This document shows, piece by piece, positions 1 through 12,978 of a stretch of DNA of 31,599 bases. Below the pieces are notes generated by a model, which was not told the DNA's origin, made no database searches, and saw only the letters and a list, made by a program, of their open reading frames with translations. This DNA comes from a virus. The DNA is taken from positions 1-31,599 of the IMG/VR virus record IMGVR_UViG_3300045988_114300. One strand, written 5' to 3'. The position numbers and the translations under genes were made by a program. Position 1 is the first letter of the stretch, and every line of letters begins with the position of its first letter.

Positions 1-1029
1 AGTAGGCTGTGGCTGTGGCTCTGGATTAGGCTCTGGAGTGGGTGTTGGTTCTGGAGTAGGTGGAGTCTCCGGCTCAGTTGGCTGTGGACGATTGTCACCG
101 TTACCGTTACCGCCAGAATCAGCTGCTACATAAGTCCACACACTAGAAGCTTGCTTCTCAGCTGAGTATAGCGTGATGGAATTCTTAATACGTGGATTCT
201 TGGTTGTGCGGTAGATAAGGAAGTACTGCTCACCGTTAGCCATTGCATTGTGCAGGTTCATAGTGAACATAGAGCCATTAATGGTTGGCTCGTCAACCTG
301 GACTGGCTGCCAGCCGTAAGAGTCATCAATTGCGCCGTACTCGTCCATGCGCACACGGTAGAGCTTGAATGAACCAGGTACGTAAGAGCCAGCTTCAATG
401 CTGTCTTCCAGGATGACATTGGTGAGGTTCATCTGGTTAACGTTCAGGCGGACTTTCCACTCGATTGTGTCAGCGTCTGTGTCAGCCACACCCCACTTAG
501 CGATGACCTCACCTGTGAGCACGTTAGGACGCTCAGTGTGAACTGTGAAGCTTGCAACTTGACCAGTAGAGGTCTGAACGATACGCAACTCTTCATGATC
601 TAGTCCGTTGTCTTCTCCAATCCACGTTGCAAGCCAGATTGAACCCTTGACGTTGTCCTTGCCCTCAACGTAGTTTGTAAAGGTGACATGGCATGTCTGA
701 GTGAGTGGGTTAATCTCTGCAACTGCGCAAACTTCGCCGTCTGGTGTGTATAGGTTGAAACTTGTTGCTGCGTCATCTGGGAAGCGTAAGAATGTTGGAA
801 GCTCGATGTCGAATGAATCGCCATTGTGAAGCTCCTGCCCTGTGGCATCCCAGTTTATGTTCATATAGAACTTGGAATGCAAGCCAACTGAGTTGACTGG
901 TTGCTTCTCTAAGTTAGTTACTTGGAAGCTTGTGAGCTGAACTGGTACCGTCTGAGCTTGTGCGAGTGCTGGCACAAATACCAGCGCAGCAAAGACAGCA
1001 ACAGCCAGCCATTGAAGAAGTTTCTTCAT
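1..1029 (-). CDS. LPXTG-anchored surface adhesin (MSCRAMM-like Ig-fold), N-terminal 343 codons; runs off the left edge and continues at the window end because the contig is circular
   Basis: ATG at 1027-1029 on the minus strand with RBS GAAAGG upstream. Signal peptide MKKLLQWLAVAVFAALVFVPALAQAQT. Hand translation gives TFTNYVEG (cf. the TYTFTDYVD motif of Clf/Sdr/Cna N2 domains) and WKVRLNVNQ. A Pro-rich PxP linker sits at the 5' window edge. No stop codon before position 1, and the frame matches the C-terminal piece at 31359-31599. Confidence 0.8.
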   Translation of the reverse strand, partial: MKKLLQWLAVAVFAALVFVPALAQAQTVPVQLTSFQVTNLEKQPVNSVGLHSKFYMNINWDATGQELHNGDSFDIELPTFLRFPDDAATSFNLYTPDGEVCAVAEINPLTQTCHVTFTNYVEGKDNVKGSIWLATWIGEDNGLDHEELRIVQTSTGQVASFTVHTERPNVLTGEVIAKWGVADTDADTIEWKVRLNVNQMNLTNVILEDSIEAGSYVPGSFKLYRVRMDEYGAIDDSYGWQPVQVDEPTINGSMFTMNLHNAMANGEQYFLIYRTTKNPRIKNSITLYSAEKQASSVWTYVAADSGGNGNGDNRPQPTEPETPPTPEPTPTPEPNPEPQPQPT

Positions 1030-1081
1030 GGTTTGCCTTTCTATTTGGTTGTGAAAAATAGGGAATTAAATAAATACTGAT

Positions 1082-1444
1082 TTATTGCAGAAGCTCGTGA
1101 CTTCCTGCAATCATTGCTGCGAGCGTCTCAAGCGTCATTGTGACGTATGTATCACCAAGCGTTTTCTCTCCAACGCCTTTGCGCTTGTGGACTACTAAGC
1201 CAAACTCTGCGTCTGCGTTTCCTCGCTCCACTTCAGCTTCCTTGAGCCACTTTGGAAGTTCCATACGAGTACAGTTCTTGCACTCAACTACGACTGGAAG
1301 ACCTCGAAAGAACACTCCTGCGATGTCTCCTCGGTCGTGAATGCCTGCCGTGGTTCTGCGCTCAATGCCAGCTCCTAGACGTGCTGCGAGGTATTCTGCG
1401 ACTTGACGCTCAAACGCTGTACCTTTCTGCTTTTGTTTGCTCAT
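1082..1444 (-). CDS. Holliday-junction resolvase-like PD-(D/E)XK nuclease (Hjc-type)
   Basis: 120-aa ORF. GTAFERQVAEYL ... DIAGV ... VVECK matches the E...D...E-x-K pattern of Hjc-like resolvases. Typical phage position before the late genes. Confidence 0.55.
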   Translation of the reverse strand: MSKQKQKGTAFERQVAEYLAARLGAGIERRTTAGIHDRGDIAGVFFRGLPVVVECKNCTRMELPKWLKEAEVERGNADAEFGLVVHKRKGVGEKTLGDTYVTMTLETLAAMIAGSHELLQ

Positions 1445-1896
1445 AGCAACCTCGAAAGGGCAATATCAAGAGTGTTCCATGAGCACTGAACAAGCCTGTA
1501 GTTGGTCAAGTCAACAATGTTCATTCCACAGGCAAGTGCAGCATCACGCTCAAGTCTTGCCCCCTTGGAGGTATGCCATCCAGGCAACATCACGATTGTG
1601 TCACACTCAATAAGTGCAACAACACAACGCTTCATTGCTTCTTCATAGCCAAGGCTGTCTGGGATTTGCGAAGCGGGGTTAAAGATCTGTAAAGCATCGC
1701 ATAGTTTGACAAGTTCTTCAGTAAACGCGAACAAGCCTTTATAGTTCTTTTTTTCTGTTATTTGTCCTGACAAATAGACCTTTTTGCCATTGATTATGTC
1801 GCTGAGAGCTTCACCATCGGTTAAGTACGCAACCTGTGCGAGTCTTCTAATTACTTCAGCAGCTTTATCTTGGTTATTCATGAGATCTCTTCTCAA
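1441..1896 (-). CDS. DUF4406-family protein (nucleoside 2-deoxyribosyltransferase-like fold)
   Basis: KVYLSGQITEKKNY ... CDTIVMLPGWHTSKGARLERDAALACGMNI matches the conserved YLSGPM / LPGWE.S.GA..E core of DUF4406. ATGA overlap with the downstream gene. Confidence 0.55.
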   Translation of the reverse strand: MRRDLMNNQDKAAEVIRRLAQVAYLTDGEALSDIINGKKVYLSGQITEKKNYKGLFAFTEELVKLCDALQIFNPASQIPDSLGYEEAMKRCVVALIECDTIVMLPGWHTSKGARLERDAALACGMNIVDLTNYRLVQCSWNTLDIALSRLL

Positions 1897-2098
1897 CTAG
1901 TCGTTTGTAATACCCGATTGCTGCGTCAAAATCTTTAAGACACTCGTCATACATGCTTGGGCTTGACCAAACGTCTTTTGACTTCATCAGAGCAGCGCAT
2001 CTGTATTTAGCTTCTAGGGCTTGCAGGTACATTTCATCTACAGTTGGTTTGCGCTCGGTGGTAACGGGAATGCAATAGTTCCAAGTTTTAGGCTTCAT
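1874..2098 (-). CDS. hypothetical small protein (internal start MKPKTWNY chosen to limit overlap)
   Basis: ORF 1874..2218. Its first 40 codons overlap the 2088..2453 ORF in another frame, so the internal ATG at 2096-2098 was chosen. Confidence 0.35.
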   Translation of the reverse strand: MKPKTWNYCIPVTTERKPTVDEMYLQALEAKYRCAALMKSKDVWSSPSMYDECLKDFDAAIGYYKRLVEKRSHE

Positions 2099-2453
2099 CA
2101 CGCACCACCCTTGCGCCACACATAGGACAATAAAATGGTTTTGGGTGGCAACAAACCTCTGCCATATAAAAATACCAACCGCATTTATCACATTCATACA
2201 CATGAACTGCCAATGCATTTAAAGTTGGCTCATGTGTAACTTCTTCATCTGTTACGTGACATGTGGGGTCGATAAGGTCGGCAAGCACGGTAAAAGCACT
2301 CTCACCGTCCGGGAGACACTTTTCAAGGTCTTTGAGGTAATTGAGAGTGTAGAAATATACGTCTTGTGGCTCAAAGAGCCCTGGCATAGTGCGCTCTTTG
2401 TACTTTGCTCGTAGCTTCTCTGCTACTTCTTGACGGCTAGTCATCGTTATCAC
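2088..2453 (-). CDS. hypothetical protein with C-terminal zinc-ribbon (CDKCG...CPMCG)
   Basis: 121-aa ORF in the leftward early operon with a CxxC-x17-CxxC motif. Confidence 0.5.
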   Translation of the reverse strand: MITMTSRQEVAEKLRAKYKERTMPGLFEPQDVYFYTLNYLKDLEKCLPDGESAFTVLADLIDPTCHVTDEEVTHEPTLNALAVHVYECDKCGWYFYMAEVCCHPKPFYCPMCGARVVRDEA

Positions 2454-2934
2454 CCGACATTTCGATTAAGTCGGTGAGCGTCCAAATCTTCTCAGATAGC
2501 TCCTCGCTAATATCTTCTTTGGCTAGAATGCATCTAATCTCGCTAACCAGCGATGCGATTGTTACTGGCTTTTTGTGGGTGATGTTGTTCGCAGGTTCTT
2601 TTGTATACACGGGTTCTGCGCCAGCTGCCAAAATAACCTCTGTGCTATTACCGCGCATCATGTATCCAGCGACTTCATACTTTATACCGTCGCCGATATA
2701 TACCGTATTCCCTACTCGGATAATCTCGCCGTCTTTGTCACGAGGTAGTTCAAGCATGTTAGACGTGTCGCAAAGTCCAAGAATGACGCTACATATTATG
2801 CAAAGGCTTTTGACATTTGACATTTCGTTTAGTTTTTCTTCACCTGTGAGAGCCTTAAAGAGCGTTGAGCTGGTAATGTACTCCGTGCTCTTCAACCTCT
2901 CAGCGATTTCTGCGCGCTCTTTTTTAGTTAGCAT
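2437..2934 (-). CDS. hypothetical early protein
   Basis: ORF 2437..2991. An internal start (MLTKKERAEIAERL) trims the overlap with the 2924..3685 gene. No recognisable domain. Confidence 0.4.
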   Translation of the reverse strand: MLTKKERAEIAERLKSTEYITSSTLFKALTGEEKLNEMSNVKSLCIICSVILGLCDTSNMLELPRDKDGEIIRVGNTVYIGDGIKYEVAGYMMRGNSTEVILAAGAEPVYTKEPANNITHKKPVTIASLVSEIRCILAKEDISEELSEKIWTLTDLIEMSGDNDD

Positions 2935-3685
2935 CTTTATCAGCTCCGTTAACCTTAATACCTGTGCAAATGAAGAATTTTTCCGCATCAAAATAAGGCA
3001 TCGATGTGATTGCTGCCTTGCTATCGTCGCTTAGGCTCTCCCACCAGGCTTGACGGTCTGCTTTCTCGAGGTATAAGAACCCGCCGGTAGTCTCATGCTC
3101 TGGGTGTGCTGCCTTTTCGTCGTCTGTCATATACTCGCTATATTTCCAGGTAAGACAGTCTGACGGTATACTGCAAAGCAAGCCATAAGCTCGCGATTGC
3201 CGGAAGTCACTAAAAGTAATGTCTGTTTGGTGGTCAAAAAGACGAACTGTAGGTTTGGTTGTATTACAGTAGCCGGAGTTACAGTCGCCGGAGTTCCAGT
3301 CGCCGGAGTTCCAGTTGCCGGAGTTCCAGTCGCCGGAGTTGCGGTTGCCGGAGTTGCGGTTGCCGGAGTTACAGTTGCCGGAGTTCCAGTCGCCGGAGTT
3401 ACAGAGACTACTTATTTCATCGGCAGTTAATTCACGCAGAATTTTAAGCTTGCGACCGACACTCTTATTTCCTTGCGTCTGTACTGCGCCGGTGACGTTT
3501 ACTTCGCAAATTCGGCAAGGCTTGCTGTAATAATCGTAGACGTCAACGCACTTCTTGCAGAAATGATAGCCGTTCTCGCATATCTTAACTTCACCCTCGA
3601 CAGTGTAGGTTTTGCCGACCTCGTACACAGTGTTATCGCCGTGCTTGGTCGTCATGTCTGACAAGAACGCTTTATAGCCTTTCAT
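2924..3685 (-). CDS. phage protein with Cys-rich N-terminal domain and 9 tandem pentapeptide (NSGxW/NSGNx) repeats
   Basis: 253-aa ORF. N-terminus MKGYKAFLSDMTTKHGDNTVYEVGKTYTVEGEVKICENGYHFC resembles a conserved phage N-domain (MKAYKGF...CENGFH). The central NSGDWNSGNCNSGNRNSGNRNSGDWNSGNWNSGDWNSGDCNSGYCN is encoded by a 15-bp tandem DNA repeat. Confidence 0.7.
   Translation of the reverse strand: MKGYKAFLSDMTTKHGDNTVYEVGKTYTVEGEVKICENGYHFCKKCVDVYDYYSKPCRICEVNVTGAVQTQGNKSVGRKLKILRELTADEISSLCNSGDWNSGNCNSGNRNSGNRNSGDWNSGNWNSGDWNSGDCNSGYCNTTKPTVRLFDHQTDITFSDFRQSRAYGLLCSIPSDCLTWKYSEYMTDDEKAAHPEHETTGGFLYLEKADRQAWWESLSDDSKAAITSMPYFDAEKFFICTGIKVNGADKDAN
3272..3406. repeat. about 9 near-perfect 15-bp tandem repeats (gccggagttNNNgtY) inside the CDS
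   Basis: Directly visible: gccggagttacagtc / gccggagttccagtc / gccggagttccagtt / gccggagttccagtc / gccggagttgcggtt x2 / gccggagttacagtt / gccggagttccagtc / gccggagttacagag. Confidence 0.95.
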
Positions 3686-4197
3686 TACTCACCATCTCCA
3701 AGAAGTCCGTAGATACGTTGTGGCAACTGTCCCTGGTATGCGTCTGCTACCTTGTCAGCGTCAACTCGAAGCGTAGTACCAAGCCAGGACTCAGCAACCT
3801 CACGCTTAACCATCTCGCAACCGCCTGGCAGCTCACCGTCTTGCGTTGCACACTCAAGCACCTTGTCTGGGTAAAGCGTGATAAGACGGGTCAAAGTGTC
3901 AATGCCAGAGTCTGATGTCATGATCCAATCAACAAACTCAGCAACACTCTTAACCTGTGGTACAACCTCAACCTTTGGCTTTGAGAGTCTTGCAGACACG
4001 GTACCAACCTTCTTGCCGTTCACTTTGAGGTCAAGCTTGGAAACTCCCATTTGCACGTAGAGGTTTCTCAGCTCGTCATCAAGCTGTGTGCGCAGATTGT
4101 CTGCTGCGTGTGCGTCAAGGTGCTCCTTAACCTTCTTCTGTAGAGCGGTTAAGAATGCGACTCTCTCAACTAACAGCTCACGTTCTTCTTTGTTCAT
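3685..4197 (-). CDS. Gp157-like / Gam-like early protein (N-terminal coiled coil)
   Basis: ORF 3685..4248; start assigned to MNKEERELL (4197). Coiled-coil N-terminus, GKKVGTVSARLSKPKVEV and LPGGCEMVKRE segments loosely resemble Sipho_Gp157. Weak call. Confidence 0.3.
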   Translation of the reverse strand: MNKEERELLVERVAFLTALQKKVKEHLDAHAADNLRTQLDDELRNLYVQMGVSKLDLKVNGKKVGTVSARLSKPKVEVVPQVKSVAEFVDWIMTSDSGIDTLTRLITLYPDKVLECATQDGELPGGCEMVKREVAESWLGTTLRVDADKVADAYQGQLPQRIYGLLGDGE

Positions 4198-4210
4198 AAT
4201 CAATCCTTTC

Positions 4211-4558
4211 TTAGCTGACTGAGTCAGCCAACCATCTATCCATCTCATCGCAGGTAATCATGTATCCTCGCTCTTGTCCTGCCGGCTTGATAAACTTGAG
4301 TGCTCCTGCCTTATGCTCGGCTCTGAGCATTGAGCCTGGAATACCTGAGTATTTAGAGGTTTGAGCAATCGTGTAAGCAAGCTGTGGTGGTAGTCCTGCA
4401 AGTACAGCTGCATTAAGTGAGCGAGAACCGTTGACGGTTCCCGTCTTCTCTGCGAGCTCTCTTTGAGCTTCTGCAGAAGCAATCATGAACTTCTCAAATA
4501 GCTTTGCGAGAACGCTCACGTCTGCGGTAATCTCTTTCTGCTTCGTTGATGTCATCAA
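4211..4558 (-). CDS. hypothetical early protein
   Basis: 115-aa ORF. No confident domain. Confidence 0.4.
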   Translation of the reverse strand: MMTSTKQKEITADVSVLAKLFEKFMIASAEAQRELAEKTGTVNGSRSLNAAVLAGLPPQLAYTIAQTSKYSGIPGSMLRAEHKAGALKFIKPAGQERGYMITCDEMDRWLADSVS

Positions 4559-4721
4559 TCCACCTCCAAACTGGGATAGTGATTGCTATATAGGGGAGAA
4601 GTCCTGGAATGCCACAGACTGAGAACGTGGCATAAATAAGAGCAAATAAAATGCCTGTCATAACTGAGCAGATGTAAGCTCCAACGGCAATCTTTTTGAA
4701 TTGAAGCGGTATACTCTTCAT
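4494..4721 (-). CDS. small membrane protein (two TM segments, basic C-terminal tail)
   Basis: 75 aa, hydrophobic AVGAYICSVMTGILFALIYATFSVCGIPGLLPYIAITIPVW. RBS GGAGG 7 nt upstream, embedded in the palindrome atgttca-N8-tgaacat. Confidence 0.45.
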   Translation of the reverse strand: MKSIPLQFKKIAVGAYICSVMTGILFALIYATFSVCGIPGLLPYIAITIPVWRWIDDINEAERDYRRRERSRKAI

Positions 4722-4744
4722 ATGTTCACCTCCAGATGAACATC

Positions 4745-4783
4745 GCCCTTACGCTATGCGACAGCGTGAGGGCAAACTTTTTT
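4745..4783 (+). terminator. terminator-like hairpin (11-bp stem gcccttacgct/agcgtgagggc, 7-nt loop) followed by aaacTTTTTT on the plus strand
   Basis: Seen in sequence. Its target is unclear because no plus-strand gene lies upstream. It may limit antisense transcription or be a 5'-UTR element of the leftward operon. Confidence 0.35.
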
Positions 4784-5027
4784 GATTGGGTTTTGCATAG
4801 CAACAAAGCGTCTATGCACGCTCTTCACGCTTTTGCGTGGCGGACTGTTAGGTCCTACACGGTTATCACTACGACCGCGCAACGTTATCTGGCTACCATT
4901 AGCCATTCACTTTATTTCAACAGGTACTCACCAACTCAAGAAGCTGAGCAAGTGTTGTTGTTTTCCCTGTAACGTTTTACGTCTATACGGTTTGCAAGGT
5001 ACGTGGTGCATGGGAAGTGGTTAGTCT

Positions 5028-5243
5028 TTAACACTTAATACGTGTTTTTCTACTTCCGATATCAAGCAGATAATCGGGAGTGCAGTTATAAAGCTTTGCA
5101 AGCTTCATAAGGTTTTCTGAAAGAGGAGTATTTTGACCAGATTCCCAGCGCAAAAGAGTATTTGCAGAGACACCAATCTTCTTTGCAGCTTCGTCTGCTG
5201 ACAAACCATGTCTTGCTCTTTCAGCCTTCATGTTCATTCGCAT
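5028..5243 (-). CDS. Cro-like XRE-family HTH regulator
   Basis: 71 aa. LSADEAAKKIGVSANTLLRWESGQNTP is a canonical HTH_XRE. Divergent from the cI-like gene, with RBS AAAGGAGG. Confidence 0.85.
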   Translation of the reverse strand: MRMNMKAERARHGLSADEAAKKIGVSANTLLRWESGQNTPLSENLMKLAKLYNCTPDYLLDIGSRKTRIKC

Positions 5244-5264
5244 TATGAGTACCTCCTTTCATTT

Positions 5265-5335
5265 ACACGTTTTCTGTGTATCAATGATGTAGATAATACA
5301 CACAAAATGTGTTTGATTCAACACAAAAAGTGTGT
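5265..5335. promoter_or_regulatory. genetic-switch operator cluster: three ACAC-N7-GTGT inverted repeats (5265-5279, 5298-5312, 5321-5335)
   Basis: ACACgttttctGTGT, ACACacaaaatGTGT, ACACaaaaagtGTGT lie between the divergent cro-like and cI-like genes. Centre spacing is 33 bp and 23 bp. Confidence 0.6.
5293..5321 (-). promoter_or_regulatory. candidate early leftward promoter (minus strand -35 TTGAAT, 17-bp spacer, -10 TATTAT) for the cro-like gene
   Basis: The minus-strand reading is TTGAATcaaacacattttgtgtgTATTAT. Operators O2 and O3 overlap the spacer and -35 region. Confidence 0.5.
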
Positions 5336-5369
5336 AATTATTGTGAAGACAATGCAATACGTGTAATTG
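5313..5369 (+). promoter_or_regulatory. candidate maintenance promoter(s) for cI (TTGATT-17-TAATTA and/or TTGTGA-17-TAATTG)
   Basis: Weak sigma70-like hexamers that overlap the operators. Confidence 0.3.
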
Positions 5370-5382
5370 AAAGTGAGCGATA

Positions 5383-6015
5383 ATGAAATATCAGATTGCT
5401 GAAGCACGTAAGCTTAGAGACATTACACAATCTGAATTAGCTGAGAAAATGGGAACTACCCAGCAAACAATTCAAAGATATGAGACTAATCAAGTTAATA
5501 TCCGCATGGATAAGATGATTGAGATGTCAGAGATATTGAATGTAAGTTTGGCTTATCTCCTTGGAATGTCTAGTAGTCCAGAATTATCAGAAGTTTCTGA
5601 CATGGTTCCTGTCCCACTTCTAGGTTCAATTGCTGCTGGGACTCCTATTGAGATGATTAACATTGATGAGACGTATGACATCCCAGCAGATATTCACGAC
5701 AGATACCCGCAAGCTTTTCTTTTGAAGGTTGTAGGCGATTCTATGAACCGCGTACTACCAAATGGTTGCTATGCGCTCATTAACCCTTGCCAAGAAGCGT
5801 CTAAGTCTATGAAGGCATATGCAGTGTGTGTGAATGGCTTTGACGCAACTATTAAGCGTGTGAGACCACTATCAAATGGCTACGAGCTCATACCAGACAG
5901 CATAGATCATACTTACAGACCGCAGGTGTTTGACTTCAATGAGATTGACACACAGCCCGTCTCAATCATTGGCGAGGTTGTGTGGTATTTAGTACCTTTT
6001 GGATTTGAGATTTAG
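5383..6015 (+). CDS. CI-like phage repressor (N-terminal HTH_XRE plus C-terminal S24 LexA-like peptidase)
   Basis: ITQSELAEKMGTTQQTIQRYETNQ helix-turn-helix, Ala-Gly cleavage site (SIAAGTPI), catalytic Ser in VGDSMN, Lys in TIKRV. Confidence 0.9.
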   Translation: MKYQIAEARKLRDITQSELAEKMGTTQQTIQRYETNQVNIRMDKMIEMSEILNVSLAYLLGMSSSPELSEVSDMVPVPLLGSIAAGTPIEMINIDETYDIPADIHDRYPQAFLLKVVGDSMNRVLPNGCYALINPCQEASKSMKAYAVCVNGFDATIKRVRPLSNGYELIPDSIDHTYRPQVFDFNEIDTQPVSIIGEVVWYLVPFGFEI

Positions 6016-6046
6016 GAGTAAGTTCAACATATAAAGGTTTAAGGAA

Positions 6047-6835
6047 TTGGAAAGGTTTAGAGAAATGGCTGTTTATCAAGACAAAGCGAGAGACCGCATC
6101 AAAAAAGGTTTGAGACGCATGACAACAATTGTCGAAAAGGGACGCGCTGAAGACTTCAAAGAAGCTGACACTCGTAAAATTGTCTCAGACATTCTGTGCG
6201 AGTACCTTGGTTGGGATAGATTTGACAATGTCACAGCTGAACAGATGATTGGCTCCCGCTTTGCTGACTATGTTGTTCGCACATCAGATGAAGAGGTATT
6301 TGTCGTTGAGGTTAAGCAAATTGGGCTTAAGCTCAAGGAAACACACCTTAATCAAGCGCGTCAATATGCTGTTGATGAGGGTATTGACTGGATTATTCTT
6401 ACCAACGGTGATGACTGGCAAGTCTATCGCACTAAGCTCGAAGGCAAAATCCCTGTCACAAAGCTAGTATTCAGAGTCACTATTTCCGACAAGGAAACAG
6501 CTCCAGCACAGAAAGCAGAGCTGCTTTACCTGCTCTCTGAAGAAGCGCATCGTAAGAATGAGATTGATGACTATTATCAGAGACGCATTGCTCTTTCTGG
6601 AGAGAACCTTGCAGATCATATCATCTCAACCGAAGTCATTAATAAGCTGCGAGTTGCTATCAAGAACACCACAGGGCAGAACCTGAAGAATTCAGAAATC
6701 GCAGAAGCTCTTGTAGCACGCTTATTCTTGCCTGAAAAGGTGACAGATGACAGTCGTAAGGCAATCGCAAAAATGAAAAAAGATGAGCGTAAGAAGCCTG
6801 TAGCAAAGACAAAAGCTGCGTCTGAGGAAGAGTAG
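6047..6835 (+). CDS. HsdR-N-like (type I restriction enzyme R N-terminal / Mrr-like) PD-(D/E)XK nuclease-domain protein with charged C-terminal tail
   Basis: ILCEYLGW ... RFADYVV ... VFVVEVKQ ... QARQYA ... WIILTNGDDWQVY matches the HSDR_N motif series (E..D-YVL..-VEAK..Q-Y..ILTNG-W-Y). Co-oriented with cI, so presumably expressed in lysogens. Confidence 0.6.
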   Translation: MERFREMAVYQDKARDRIKKGLRRMTTIVEKGRAEDFKEADTRKIVSDILCEYLGWDRFDNVTAEQMIGSRFADYVVRTSDEEVFVVEVKQIGLKLKETHLNQARQYAVDEGIDWIILTNGDDWQVYRTKLEGKIPVTKLVFRVTISDKETAPAQKAELLYLLSEEAHRKNEIDDYYQRRIALSGENLADHIISTEVINKLRVAIKNTTGQNLKNSEIAEALVARLFLPEKVTDDSRKAIAKMKKDERKKPVAKTKAASEEE

Positions 6836-6913: not shown

Positions 6914-8020
6914 ATGCCACGTAAACGTTCTTCATGGGGTTCAAATCAGTCAATGGGTCCTGGGAAACGCAGAATCCGCTATATGGCTGACACGGGAGAC
7001 GGTAGAGGGTTCACAAGACACTCTGAGACCGTCTATGGAACACGCAAACAAGCTGATGAAGTATTAGCGCAAAGACGCATAGAACACAGCCAAGACAAGC
7101 CTGTGCCAACGCTCAGGCAGGCTTATGAAGCGTGGTACCTTCCAGAGTTGCAAGAACAACTGAAGACAGGTGAACTCTCTCAGAACTCATATAAGAACTA
7201 TGTTAGTAGATGGACAAGGCATATAGACCCTATTTGGGGAAGCTTGCCAATCACGGCAATTAAACCTCTTGGAATCCAGGAATGGCTGCTCACTATGACG
7301 CAGGGAATCGCTGAGACATCGCTTATGTTGCTGCGTAAAATCCTCGATAAGTGCGTCATGCTTGAGCTGCTACCAGCAAACCCTGCAAGCGTTACGTATA
7401 GGATGCCTAAGCAATCGAATAAGCGTGATACGGATGTTTACTCGCTTAGTGAACTTTGCGAGGTTTTAGAAGCTCTACGTGGCTCTGTTGCTTATATCCC
7501 AGCTATTCTCTGTGGCATTGGTTCATGCCGTGTTGGTGAGTCATTAGGCGTGAGAAAAGAAAACATCATGTCTTATAAATATGATGGCATGACGCTTGCC
7601 ATTATTGACATTGATACACAAGTAGATAATAACGGAGAAGTACTAAACAAGCTAAAGACGCCACAAAGCAAGAGACCTATAGTCATTCCAGAGCCATGGT
7701 CAAAAGACATTCTCTCAATTGATACAGACTGGCTCACTGATACAGGCTATGGGAAGCCAGTAAGCCAGTAGGTAGTGCGTTATGTATGGAATAGGCTTCT
7801 CAAAGAAAAGAATCTTAAATACATTCCATTTAGAAATCTGCGTAATTCTTGGCGCACTATCATGCGTTGGGAGTTAGGTATAGACTCTGACTATGTTGAG
7901 AAGATGATGGGTCATGCTGGAAAGGGCGTTGGTGAAATACACTATGATCGTCCGCAATGGAGACAGTTTGCGGATGTTGTAGGAGAAACATGGGTTAGAT
8001 ACATGGCAAAGAATAATTAA
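6914..8020 (+). pseudogene. int: tyrosine integrase interrupted by a single in-frame TAG (7769-7771); two ORFs 6914..7771 and 7775..8020 in the same frame
   Basis: The N-terminal ORF carries the arm-binding domain and box I (CRVGESLGV, LKTPQSKRPIVIP). The downstream ORF carries box II (FRNLRNSWRT) and the Tyr region (MGHAGKGVGEIHYDRP). 6914 and 7775 are the same residue mod 3, giving ...KPVSQ*VVRYVW. Confidence 0.7.
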
Positions 8021-11218: not shown

Positions 11219-12978
11219 TAAGCTGTCCTTTCCCATTTGAAGCAGCCAAGAGAAGGTAGTTGTTGCCATCTACCTCCGTAGTTTGATTGCGGGTTAACAA
11301 ATGAAGTTGTCTCAATCACAGAACCAACAGGGAAAGATGGTGTGGTTGCACCGCCTTGAGTTGCTCCCTGAACGTTGATAGTCACGTCACTAGATCCGTC
11401 AAATGAAGCGGTACCACTCACAGAGCCAACCAGCTTGATGGTGCGTGGCTGTGAGAGCTTCTTAGCAGCGTTAGCGTCACCGCCTGGAGTAGATGCGCCA
11501 GCGTATGGGTGAGTGTGGTTTGCAGGAGCTGCACCAACTTCTTGTGCTGTGTATGTTGGCTTTGCAGGAAGCTTTACTGTATGCGCCTGAGCGTCTGTAA
11601 CGTGCCCTAAAGCGTTCACATTGACCGTTGCGCCTAATTGGACTGTGCTACCCCAAGAAGCGTCTATATCGCTCTCAGAGCCGTATGTGCCAGCGGTCAC
11701 ACTAGAAGGCTCATGAGTAAGAGCGACTGTGCCACCTGTGCGCTGAGCCTTGAGGGGTGTTGTTGCTGTAACTTCTGCCACTTTAGAGTCAACCTGCAGT
11801 GTTGCTCTGCCAATCTCACTAGCTGAATCTGTTGCAACTTTACGGGCTTCATTTACTTTGTTCTCAAGGCTCTTGAAGTCTGCTCTTGATACTTCTGCAG
11901 AGATGGTGCGTCCAGCGATGGAGATACCAGTACCGGCTGTGTATGAGCTTGATACTGCGCCTGAGCCTGTGGAAGAACCGCGCTCAGCTGTGCCAGATGA
12001 AGAAGTGTTGCTAGCAGTACCGCCAACCTTGTAACTAATGCTTACCTCGGTATCTGTGACAATAATGACTTTGGTACCAACGGTTGCTGTAACGTGTAGA
12101 CCAGTCACAGGATCTATGCCAGGGACGATGTCTCCAATTCCGAACTCTTCATCATCATCAAGTGTGACGTTAATTGAGTCAGCAGCTTGATACTCTTTAA
12201 GCTTCTTAGGACCGTCTTTTTCCAGCTCTTCACGACTTGCATTGGTGTAGTTGTATGTGGTCGTGCGCTCATCAATGCCAAAGAGTGTCTGTGTAGTGGA
12301 GATGTTTCCTCGCTCGTCTGCGTAGAAGTGCAACACAATACGGTTCTTAAGCTCACCAGAGCCAAGGCAGATAAGATGGTTGTAAGGTCTTACAACACTC
12401 TTAATAGTCACGTCAGAATGTTCTGCGTCTGCGCCGTCAGTCCAGTCTGTAATGGGCTTTACCGAAAGTACAATCATGCGCTCAATGGAGTCATACTCAA
12501 TGTTGAGACGTGATGAAGAGTCAGCAAGCATCTTTCTGATGCCCGTCCAAGCATCACAGTACCTGTCGAAGGTGTACTTAACGGTAATGCCAGAAGTTTC
12601 TTCTGAGACTTTGAACTGGTTAGTAAGTCCCAGACGCTGAACAAGCTGCTTTAGAACTCCGTGAGCTTCACCACGAACACTGAGATAATCTTCTCCGCTT
12701 GGTGGTTCAAGGACCTTATCTCTAATGATTCCTTGCCATGATCTACCAATATACGTAATTGTGTTGTTGCCTGAATTGGACTCTCGTGCGTCAACCACAC
12801 CGCCCCACTCAGTGCCTTCAACATAGACGTATGCGCCATCATCGAGACGCTGCTCAGAGTCAATGTCGAGTGTAAGCTCAAAGTCGTTACCCGTGTCTCC
12901 ATATTCCAGGTCAAGGCGTGCCCCTTTGAGCGCGCCAATATCGAGATGCGTTGCGTCTGTGTAGCTAATATCTGGCAT
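11218..12978 (-). CDS. tail-associated lysin / tail tip protein (Tal, prophage tail endopeptidase family)
   Basis: 586 aa, immediately after Dit. TMP-Dit-Tal order. Gly/Ser/Thr-rich collagen-like C-terminal half. Confidence 0.6.
   Translation of the reverse strand: MPDISYTDATHLDIGALKGARLDLEYGDTGNDFELTLDIDSEQRLDDGAYVYVEGTEWGGVVDARESNSGNNTITYIGRSWQGIIRDKVLEPPSGEDYLSVRGEAHGVLKQLVQRLGLTNQFKVSEETSGITVKYTFDRYCDAWTGIRKMLADSSSRLNIEYDSIERMIVLSVKPITDWTDGADAEHSDVTIKSVVRPYNHLICLGSGELKNRIVLHFYADERGNISTTQTLFGIDERTTTYNYTNASREELEKDGPKKLKEYQAADSINVTLDDDEEFGIGDIVPGIDPVTGLHVTATVGTKVIIVTDTEVSISYKVGGTASNTSSSGTAERGSSTGSGAVSSSYTAGTGISIAGRTISAEVSRADFKSLENKVNEARKVATDSASEIGRATLQVDSKVAEVTATTPLKAQRTGGTVALTHEPSSVTAGTYGSESDIDASWGSTVQLGATVNVNALGHVTDAQAHTVKLPAKPTYTAQEVGAAPANHTHPYAGASTPGGDANAAKKLSQPRTIKLVGSVSGTASFDGSSDVTINVQGATQGGATTPSFPVGSVIETTSFVNPQSNYGGRWQQLPSLGCFKWERTA

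Follow-up and report, generated by a model that had tools for sequence, protein, structure and literature searches.

Why would a temperate phage carry, among its early replication genes, a gene whose product looks made for the bacterial cell wall? The locus lies in IMGVR_UViG_3300045988_114300, a complete circular temperate siphovirus genome which we analysed over its full 31,599 nucleotides (the window) and whose true circle measures 31,544 bp. An earlier interpretation drawn from the letters alone (the sequence-only reading) had taken two minus-strand reading frames at opposite ends of the record for the halves of one phage-encoded protein of about 405 residues. The phage origin is borne out by genes for CI/Cro, integrase, terminase, portal, major capsid protein, tape measure, holin and lysin, and the halves do form a single protein. 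Bases 1-55 are identical to bases 31545-31599, representing the 55-nt k-mer overlap of a circular assembly. Because 55 is not divisible by 3, joining the raw ends of the record breaks the frame of the adhesin gene; with the overlap collapsed, a single unbroken minus-strand ORF of exactly 405 aa runs from 1029 to 1 and then from 31544 to 31359, ending in a TAA stop codon at 31358-31356 (Table 1). The two halves are also contiguous in nature, since genes 89-96% identical to this one are intact within independent contigs, namely a 73-kb MAG contig (L001), a 190-kb contig (L004), a 31.6-kb contig (L200) and the complete Lancefieldella parvula chromosome CP097092.1 (L006), which was assembled from nanopore and Illumina reads (PMC9600527). 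The ORF is coding and not a chance occurrence, because within each class of the family dS reaches 0.6-0.85 but amino-acid identity is 93-100%.

Table 1. Features of the adhesin gene, its product and its surroundings, with positions in the window
Feature	Position	Strand	Basis or remark
RusA-like Holliday-junction resolvase gene, upstream	1082..1444	-	phrog_244, E=2.7e-29
Conserved non-coding leader AATTCCCTATTTTTCACAACCAAATAGAAAGG, ending in ribosome-binding site GAAAGG	1036..1067	-	comparison of loci
Predicted hairpin CCAUGAAGA-AACU-UCUUCAAUGG pairing the start codon, -8.6 kcal/mol	1009..1031	-	RNA folding
Adhesin CDS, 5' part, codons 1-343, ATG 1029-1027	1..1029	-	translation after circularisation
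Signal peptide, aa 1-25	955..1029	-	Lys-Lys n-region, hydrophobic core, ALA/AQA cleavage motifs
N1 IgG-like domain, aa 27-165	535..951	-	Pfam Big_8, aa 52-139, E=4.7e-21
TFTNYVEG motif in N1, aa 116-123	661-684	-	aligned to staphylococcal motif
N2 IgG-like domain, aa 166-300	130..534	-	Pfam Collagen_bind (PF05737), aa 174-279, E=6.1e-11
Putative isopeptide triad K178, D209, N283	496-498, 403-405, 181-183	-	alignment
WKVRLNVNQ in N2, aa 191-199	433-459	-	translation
Latch-like motif DSGGNGNGDNRP and first part of linker, Pro/Glu/Thr-rich, aa 301-343	1..129	-	family conservation
Adhesin CDS, 3' part, codons 344-405 and TAA 31358-31356	31356..31544	-	translation after circularisation
Linker, second part, Pro- and Lys-rich, aa 344-371	31461..31544	-	translation
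LPATG sorting motif, aa 372-376	31446..31460	-	translation, family conservation
Hydrophobic membrane span, aa 379-398, and basic tail RFVRKEQ	31359..31445	-	translation
67-aa early gene, downstream; its ATG overlaps the adhesin stop (TAATG)	31153..31356	-	weak Rho_N/SAP-like and phrog_3281 matches
Assembly overlap, 55 nt	31545..31599		copy of 1-55; to be collapsed before translation

From its sequence and from models, the precursor is seen to comprise, from N- to C-terminus, a Sec-type signal peptide, two IgG-like domains, a latch-like segment, a Pro-rich spacer, LPATG-D, a membrane span and a basic tail. All of the motifs quoted in the sequence-only reading were found, including the signal-peptide-like start, TFTNYVEG, WKVRLNVNQ, the PEPTPTPEPNPEPQPQP linker, which lies N-terminal to LPATG, the hydrophobic span and the RFVRKEQ tail. 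The N-terminus, MKKLLQWLAVAVFAALVFVPALAQA, consists of MKK, a 20-aa hydrophobic core (mean Kyte-Doolittle value 2.31) and then ALA-QA, and the predicted signal peptide is kept in all 111 homologues of the family alignment. The latch-like DSGGNGNGD (DSGGxGxGD in its family form) is likewise retained, with most of its positions present in all 111 sequences. The corresponding SGGxGxGD of the broader family falls in register with DSGGGDG at the C-terminus of Bbp; in the model of the phage protein, everything past residue 289, this segment included, is below pLDDT 50. The whole linker (aa 301-371) is 30% proline with a mean hydropathy of -1.81. At the sorting signal, LPxTGD is maintained across the 111 homologues, with no variation at L, P or the D after the motif and with T and G present in at least 90%, and the membrane span and basic tail are kept as well. 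The relatives show no fewer than four distinct tail sequences, every one of them after LPxTGD. Of the complete sortase-A substrate that had been proposed, the three elements (motif, span and tail) are all present, but the LPXTG model TIGR01167 scores 11.9 bits against a cut-off of 15.9 and is below threshold. The host is an actinobacterium (Coriobacteriia), and the assignment to sortase class A is putative.

Two adjacent IgG-like (DEv-IgG) subdomains are present in the adhesin, and an Ig-fold, putatively ligand-binding region with a motif resembling TYTFTDYVD, as had been proposed, is upheld both by the Pfam domains and by profile alignments to SdrE, ClfB and ClfA. A family profile searched against PDB sequences matches SdrE, ClfB, ClfA and Bbp with the TYTFTDYV motif in register, such that VTFTNYVEGKDNVKG matches TYTFTDYVDKYEDIK of SdrE and FVFTDYVNDKENING of ClfB column for column, and N1 of the phage protein is aligned to the N2 domains of SdrE, ClfB and ClfA. 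With a profile of the broader family, the matches in the PDB are FnBPA (3e-14), ClfA, Bbp, SdrE, Cna (5e-9) and RspB. Neither a single-sequence search with N2 nor an N2-only profile reached the PDB. The putative isopeptide triad is strongly conserved: D209 and N283 are invariant both in the 111-member family and in the broader family (26-45% identity), while K178 is invariant in the broader alignment and present in at least 90% of the 111 members. In a local hmmsearch with the broader profile these residues align with K176/D209/N293, taken as the isopeptide triad of Cna, and a corresponding bond in the adhesin is presumed. AlphaFold models N1 with a pLDDT of 82-93 and N2 with only 50-76; the mean pLDDT was 59 with 26 sequences and 63.5 with 111 sequences, and the whole-chain TM-score of the predicted adhesin to solved adhesins is only about 0.3.

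The closest likenesses are to two groups of MSCRAMMs. With the collagen-hug proteins Cna, ACE and RspB of Staphylococcus, Enterococcus and Erysipelothrix, the phage adhesin shares the N1(Big_8)-N2(Collagen_bind) arrangement, the positions of the Lys/Asp/Asn triad and the LPXTG motif. Unlike them, it is only 405 aa long, shows 13-18% identity, is encoded by a phage of an actinobacterium and gives no Cna_B match in Pfam, a Pro-rich spacer taking the place of a Cna_B repeat stalk. With the dock-lock-latch adhesins of the Clf-Sdr-FnBP type (ClfA/B, SdrC/D/E/G, Bbp and FnBPA) it has in common the TYTFTDYV-type motif, and its DSGGxGxGD aligns with the DSGGGDG of Bbp, but its second domain scores as Collagen_bind and not as SdrG_C_C (N3), and it has neither Ser-Asp repeats nor YSIRK in the signal peptide. 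The nearest non-phage relatives of the A region are chromosomal 'Cna B-type domain-containing' adhesins of Pseudoramibacter, Peptoniphilus and Lachnospiraceae. These oral Firmicutes proteins are 35-42% identical to the phage A region over ~270 aa and share the K/D/N triad and SGGxGxGD; they differ in their length of 424-1327 aa and in that several are named for Cna B-type repeats and none was seen within a phage. Outside the phage-borne family, the searches brought up no homologue of more than 45% identity. Two members of that family, both of class II and 47-53% identical, are already deposited under machine-annotated names only, UniProt A0A8S5U8F9 'Clumping factor [Siphoviridae sp. ct9j27]' and the nr entry 'MAG TPA: Collagen binding domain protein [Caudoviricetes sp.]', and no studies of either were found in the searchable literature. 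SasX and SesI, from phiSPbeta-like prophages of S. aureus and S. epidermidis, are likewise prophage-borne, LPXTG-bearing, wall-anchored colonisation factors, and SasX is a surface protein thought to help MRSA to colonise and spread (PMC7047976). Compared with SasX by description, the phage adhesin stands apart in being near-universal in its phage group and in lying within the early operon. SasX itself we take to be small, without the two-domain layout of MSCRAMMs, sporadic, and accessory cargo at a prophage end.

All 24 genome matches of the adhesin fall in Atopobium, Lancefieldella or Atopobiaceae, and the gene is found in more than 119 viral contigs, invariably with early replication genes around it. 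Within the lineage, 26 of 26 newly fetched loci (Sak4 identity at least 85%) have it at the same site. It is also present in 19 of the 20 assessable loci found via an independent marker gene; L194 alone shows no adhesin within the fetched 9 kb, and there the expected site lies at the edge of the locus. The fetched loci extend for 10 kb or less to either side and end short of the tail module. The gene occurs besides in two other phage lineages, whose head modules are unrelated in their terminase, portal and capsid families. The binding domains fall into two classes that are 44% identical to each other, and this division is ancient. Within each class, N1 and N2 have a dN/dS of 0.03-0.08, indicating strong purifying selection. 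Values as low as these are unusual for an immune-exposed adhesin and count against the explanation that we prefer below. Among 50,697 GenBank phage records, megablast with 25 kb of the window gave no match, and tblastn with the adhesin returned one weak match, to Enterococcus phage Efs 1-1-1 (24.6% identity). PHROGs holds no family for the adhesin, and the searchable literature yielded nothing on phage adhesins of Lancefieldella or Atopobium.

The location of the gene among early and replication genes, and not in the tail module, is confirmed by its neighbours: RusA lies upstream and Sak4 and a DnaB-like gene lie downstream. Cro is ~4 kb upstream of it and the tail module ~20 kb away, and it lies outside the integrase-repressor interval which forms the lysogeny module. 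The TAATG overlap of its stop codon with the start of the next gene was seen in 20 of 20 loci examined, and its GC content is 49.8% against 47.7% for the genome. No terminator-like sites were found on the minus strand in 1-6100 or 26500-31599, the regions flanking the adhesin on both sides. Where the sequence-only reading had looked to 1030-1081 for a promoter of the gene's own, there is no consensus promoter, and no sigma-70-type site occurs in 1030-1500 on the minus strand, yet this phage does have a canonical promoter for Cro (TTGAAT-17-TATTAT).

A leader of about 32-45 nt precedes the adhesin gene in all loci, irrespective of which gene is upstream, and its motif occurs once in the window. 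Its mean pairwise identity of 0.85 exceeds that of the neighbouring third codon positions (0.70) and that of the sequence further upstream (0.475). Inspection by eye, with no tool, places an AATAAT / TTTAAT hexamer within the leader that could be a -10 element. In the stem of the predicted start-codon hairpin the synonymous sites are fixed (AAG in 80 of 81 sequences and CTT in 81 of 81) and the loop positions vary; the stem being invariant, there is no covariation and the hairpin is thus not proven. A search of Rfam gave no match anywhere in the window. The possession of its own leader, ribosome-binding site and start-codon hairpin suggests that translation of the adhesin is tuned separately. 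The leader and the start-codon palindrome were also considered as a CI/Cro operator and rejected, as that function falls to four ACACAnnnnTGTGT repeats at 5263-5337, and the motif of the leader has no second copy in the window.

Taking these observations together, we think it likely that the adhesin is a minimal MSCRAMM of the Cna/Clf-Sdr type, carried by a temperate siphovirus of Lancefieldella/Atopobium, which are Coriobacteriia of mouth and gut, and decorating the wall of the cell which that phage occupies. Its molecular identity is firm, while its biological role, be it lysogenic conversion or a surface function in the lytic cycle, is one that we infer. Because the gene is intact and is kept in the early operon by nearly all related phages, the adhesin probably alters the surface of the infected or lysogenic cell. 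The gene is a fixed part of the early (Cro-side) operon and is coupled in translation to the next gene. After export, the host sortase would cut LPAT|G and join the protein to peptidoglycan, leaving N1-N2 free to clamp a protein or peptide ligand by a dock-lock-latch or collagen-hug mechanism, with a Lys178-Asn283 isopeptide bond that may stiffen N2. Such a ligand might come from host tissue, saliva or a partner cell, in two ancient specificity classes, and with the adhesin on its wall a lysogen or infected cell may be fitter or better transmitted.

It is doubtful that the gene is a classic moron, transcribed autonomously from the repressed prophage and increasing host adhesion or biofilm formation in the manner of SasX on phiSPbeta or of lambda lom and bor. 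The product, a cell-surface adhesin, has no evident part in making virions, SasX provides a precedent for a prophage-borne LPXTG protein (PMC7047976), and the conserved leader with its possible -10 hexamer accompanies the gene whatever lies upstream. The architecture of a moron, as anticipated by the sequence-only reading, was nevertheless not what we found: the gene lacks a consensus promoter and a terminator, its GC content is genome-like, its distribution is near-universal and not sporadic, and, given the stop-start overlap, any transcript made in the lysogen would take in the early genes that follow. Its place in the operon makes expression in a repressed prophage less likely, and hence also lysogenic conversion in its classic form.

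In another account, the adhesin would be produced soon after infection or induction, alongside the replication proteins, and would remodel the surface during the lytic cycle or exclude superinfecting phages, thereby serving phage transmission and not host colonisation; overall, we give this account a rather low probability. It would fit a Cro-side early operon in which the gene has no promoter or terminator of its own and is coupled to its downstream neighbour, and the almost universal presence of the adhesin over three phage lineages of one host genus, under purifying selection equal to that on core phage genes, points the same way. So do the occurrence of both allele classes within one MAG or contig (L001 with L013; L043 with L100) and the intact state of the adhesin gene in the present genome, where the integrase carries a nonsense codon. 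Set against this, the MSCRAMM fold is found in no known exclusion protein, PADLOC gave no match for the adhesin, the known Gram-positive Sie/Ltp genes belong to the lysogeny module and are active in the prophage, and sortase anchoring needs ongoing wall synthesis, which is perhaps limited late in infection. In the two variants of this account, the adhesin would mask or bind the phage receptor on the producing cell and on its debris, as an analogue of T5 Llp, or would tether infected cells to neighbouring hosts. In a related formulation, advanced tentatively and with little confidence, the adhesin would be a core early function of Lancefieldella phages and not cargo, made at the onset of the lytic programme with its translation gated by the leader and hairpin, anchored by sortase on the infected cell, and acting to mask the phage receptor on that cell and its debris or to glue infected cells to fresh hosts or surfaces.

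It is very improbable that the protein is a virion-associated Ig-like decoration or tail adhesin (Hoc/BAM-like or PblA/B-like) which is freed at lysis without sortase anchoring. Ig-like folds are common on virions and the weak BFVD matches are tail proteins, but the adhesin has a signal peptide, LPxTG, a membrane span and a basic tail, its gene lies among replication genes far from the tail module, and the only strong viral match in BFVD is a member of the same adhesin family. The chance that the gene is an assembly artefact, a chimera of halves from different molecules created by circularising, is negligible: it does span the contig ends and its join rests on the 55-nt overlap, but intact genes of 89-96% identity with the same neighbours in more than 60 independent contigs, the closed chromosome CP097092.1 (PMC9600527) among them, refute a chimeric ORF.

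The view of the adhesin as a minimal MSCRAMM on the wall of the occupied cell bears on Lancefieldella (Atopobium) parvulum, a bacterium often present on the tongue and in saliva. In the literature searched, this species appears mostly in reviews on colorectal cancer and dental caries, and its phages are, to our knowledge, essentially unstudied. With a phage-borne adhesin in two specificity classes, what these bacteria adhere to could depend on the phage they carry, and thus lysogeny or infection, and not the chromosome, could fix niche or partner specificity. Given its near-constant retention, the very strong purifying selection on it and its place in an early operon, the gene may also reveal a role for sortase anchoring in a phage life cycle, a use of the host enzyme that is not known to have been described and for which SasX is the closest known precedent. 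If the adhesin does prove to be a core early function, no earlier example is known in which a phage enlists the host sortase pathway and an MSCRAMM fold for its infection strategy.

The window closes with an exact copy of its opening 55 bases; this terminal direct repeat is the k-mer overlap signature of a circular contig, and the real molecule is therefore 31,544 bp long. Raw end-to-end concatenation of the window shifts the adhesin frame. When the overlap is collapsed a single minus-strand ORF of 405 codons is obtained, and any feature crossing the window ends must be read in this way. Every string quoted in the sequence-only reading, which had joined two ORF halves into a secreted LPXTG adhesin, is found in the resulting protein. 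An artefactual join of these halves is ruled out by intact genes (89–96% identical and with the same neighbours) carried internally by many independent contigs, including 73-kb and 190-kb MAG contigs, a 31.6-kb contig and the closed Lancefieldella parvula chromosome CP097092.1, which PMC9600527 reports to be assembled from nanopore plus Illumina data.

Principal features of the phage genome (window numbering)
Feature	Position	Strand	Remark
Terminal direct repeat	1-55 = 31545-31599		55 nt
Adhesin ORF	1029..1 then 31544..31359; TAA 31358-31356	minus	overlap collapsed
DUF4406/nucleoside 2-deoxyribosyltransferase (NDT)-like gene	1441-1896	minus	
Cro-like regulator	5243-5028	minus	PHROG scan
Four ACACAnnnnTGTGT palindromes	5263-5337		between divergent CI-like and Cro-like genes
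CI-like regulator	5383-6015	plus	PHROG scan
262-aa gene	6047-6835	plus	between CI and integrase genes
Integrase	6914-8020	plus	PHROG scan
In-frame TAG in integrase	7772-7774	plus	…KPVSQ(stop)VVRY…
Large-terminase ORF	24977-26653	minus	558 aa

In overall build the adhesin is an MSCRAMM of the Cna/Clf-Sdr type, reduced to a minimum and lacking B repeats. Pfam matches lie well above cut-off for Big_8 (residues 52–139, 4.7e-21) and Collagen_bind (residues 174–279, 6.1e-11), and the family profile matches the PDB N2 domains of SdrE, ClfB, ClfA and Bbp, in which TYTFTDYVD aligns with TFTNYVEG, as had been proposed from the sequence. When the profile is drawn more widely, from relatives at 26–45% identity, it matches FnBPA (3e-14), ClfA, Bbp, SdrE, Cna (5e-9) and RspB. 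Both domains are all-beta in the AlphaFold models, with confident pLDDT for N1 (82–93) and only moderate values for N2 (50–76), and the top Foldseek matches are about a dozen characterised MSCRAMM A-regions (from E=2e-13). D209 and N283 are invariant both among 111 close homologues and in the broader family, while K178 is invariant in the latter and kept by 90% or more of the former. The profile alignment tentatively places these three residues on K176, D209 and N293 of Cna, which form the isopeptide bond of its N2 domain. Directly after N2 stands a conserved DSGGNGNGDNRP, the family form of which, SGGxGxGD, lines up with the DSGGGDG at the end of Bbp; it would fit a latch segment. Next come a 71-residue linker (30% proline), then LPATG-D and, beyond a hydrophobic span of 20 residues, RFVRKEQ; all are conserved through the 111 homologues, and the TIGR01167 score is below its cut-off.

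PHROG scans identify the window as a complete temperate siphovirus with an endolysin and holin, structural genes (tail, Dit, tape measure, major capsid, portal and large terminase) and replication genes (DnaB-like helicase, Sak4 annealase and RusA) in addition to its integrase. The ACACAnnnnTGTGT copies overlap a canonical promoter, TTGAAT-17-TATTAT, and are probably immunity operators. The minus-strand order (Cro ... DUF4406/NDT-like, RusA, adhesin, 67-aa, 64-aa and 118-aa genes, Sak4 ... DnaB-like ... terminase) puts approximately 4 kb of the early operon ahead of the adhesin. When one genome per prokaryotic species was scanned, 24 adhesin loci were recovered, every one from Atopobium sp., Lancefieldella parvula or Atopobiaceae MAGs, so that this genus of Coriobacteriia is the host. 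The window genome resembles none of the phage records in GenBank.

Three other genes of this phage deserve comment. The in-frame TAG of the integrase precedes the region containing the conserved Arg, His and Tyr of the C-terminus; since eight related phages have CAG (Gln) at this codon, it is either a nonsense mutation private to this genome or an error of sequencing, and the phage may be unable to integrate. In the 262-aa gene (phrog_17239, E=3.5e-106) there is a nuclease-like HSDR_N_2 domain, and PADLOC matches the gene weakly to a type IIG restriction enzyme. It is 95–99% identical between phage lineages that are otherwise very different in their modules, and is a candidate for a defence or exclusion function encoded by the prophage. 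The first ~100 residues of the terminase ORF also match the small-terminase families phrog_1595 and phrog_51, reflecting either fused subunits or an over-extended ORF start.

The adhesin gene looks like an integral member of the early operon with individually tuned translation, and not like an insulated moron. A consensus scan found no promoter at 1030–1081, where the sequence-only reading had proposed to look for one, nor elsewhere on the minus strand upstream of the adhesin, even though this phage has a canonical Cro promoter; nor is there a minus-strand terminator in the regions scanned to either side. The adhesin stop codon, TAA, shares bases with the start codon of the next gene (TAATG) in 20/20 loci examined, whichever gene comes next. 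A leader of ~32 nt, AATTCCCYATTTWTCAMAACCWAATAGAAAGG, occurs once in the window and always lies immediately upstream of the adhesin regardless of the preceding gene, with a conservation of 0.85 versus 0.70 at adjacent third codon positions and 0.475 further upstream. The start codon falls within a predicted, as yet unproven, 9-bp hairpin (-8.6 kcal/mol) whose loop is variable and whose stem is fixed at synonymous sites (AAG 80/81, CTT 81/81); there is no covariation because the stem never varies.

More than 120 homologue clusters (393–409 aa, 48–96% identity) are present in the protein database, mostly on 25–45-kb contigs and with a few named automatically (e.g. 'Collagen binding domain protein [Caudoviricetes sp.]'), and at least 119 viral stretches in IMG/VR carry the gene. 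The site between RusA and the small gene is occupied in all 26 newly fetched loci of the window's lineage (Sak4 at ≥85% identity). Among 20 loci found via an unrelated marker gene with the early region covered, 19 contain the adhesin; the twentieth (L194) shows none in the 9 kb covered, its expected site falling at the edge of that stretch. The gene again lies among early genes in two further prophage lineages, whose replication genes are different and whose terminase, portal and capsid belong to other PHROG families. The nearest relatives outside the family are 35–42% identical and 424–1327 aa long; those with a source name come from Pseudoramibacter, Peptoniphilus and Lachnospiraceae and are labelled as 'Cna B-type' or 'Ig-like' surface proteins. 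The sole real match in the BFVD viral structure library is a family member named 'Clumping factor'.

The DUF4406/NDT-like gene, also present in loci L007–L024, lies just upstream or one gene downstream of the adhesin in all three lineages, and two of these lineages (the window's and the L021 type) also have a homologue of the 67-aa gene alongside the adhesin, which suggests a small early-gene module moving together. L021, of the second lineage, also has a 406-aa tyrosine-recombinase-like gene (11346–12566; phrog_1, E=1.2e-61) that lies outside the lysogeny module, among the early genes and two genes downstream of the adhesin.

Just two binding-region classes, 44% identical to one another, exist among 86 unique genes: class I, that of the window (39 members, 93–100% identity), and class II (47 members, 87–100%). 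Within classes, dN/dS is 0.03–0.08 in N1 and N2 at dS 0.6–0.85, whereas between classes synonymous sites are saturated. In the signal-peptide region dS is equal within and between classes. Recombination thus shuffles the binding cassette and the linker, together with at least four anchor tails. Both classes occur on different phage backbones (loci L107, L186, L198 and L199). One gene of each class is found in a single 52.9-kb contig (IMGVR_UViG_3300045988_075207; L043 and L100) and in a single MAG (CALHDX01; L001 and L013), such that hosts can hold both specificities at once; these cases represent either tandem or double lysogeny or chimeric assembly.

We can firmly conclude that Lancefieldella/Atopobium phages encode a secreted, adhesin-type protein that has two IgG-like domains and a putative LPXTG sorting signal and is under strong selection. 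Host sortase would anchor it, a K178–N283 isopeptide bond may form, and ligand would be bound via dock-lock-latch or a collagen hug. The observation made from the sequence stands, while its interpretation is supported only in part, the look of an insulated moron not being borne out. Classic lysogenic conversion is possible but doubtful, being weakened both by the way the operon is built and by the near-universal presence of the gene. A role in the lytic cycle, through receptor masking or cell tethering, is slightly less likely: it is compatible with the wiring of the gene but has no known precedent with an MSCRAMM fold. The rest of the weight goes to a general reading in which altered adhesion would benefit the occupied cell or the phage. 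Literature searches returned nothing on this family, the nearest precedent being the prophage-borne SasX, and the core-like early-operon status of the adhesin gene is unusual for an MSCRAMM or a phage-borne surface protein.
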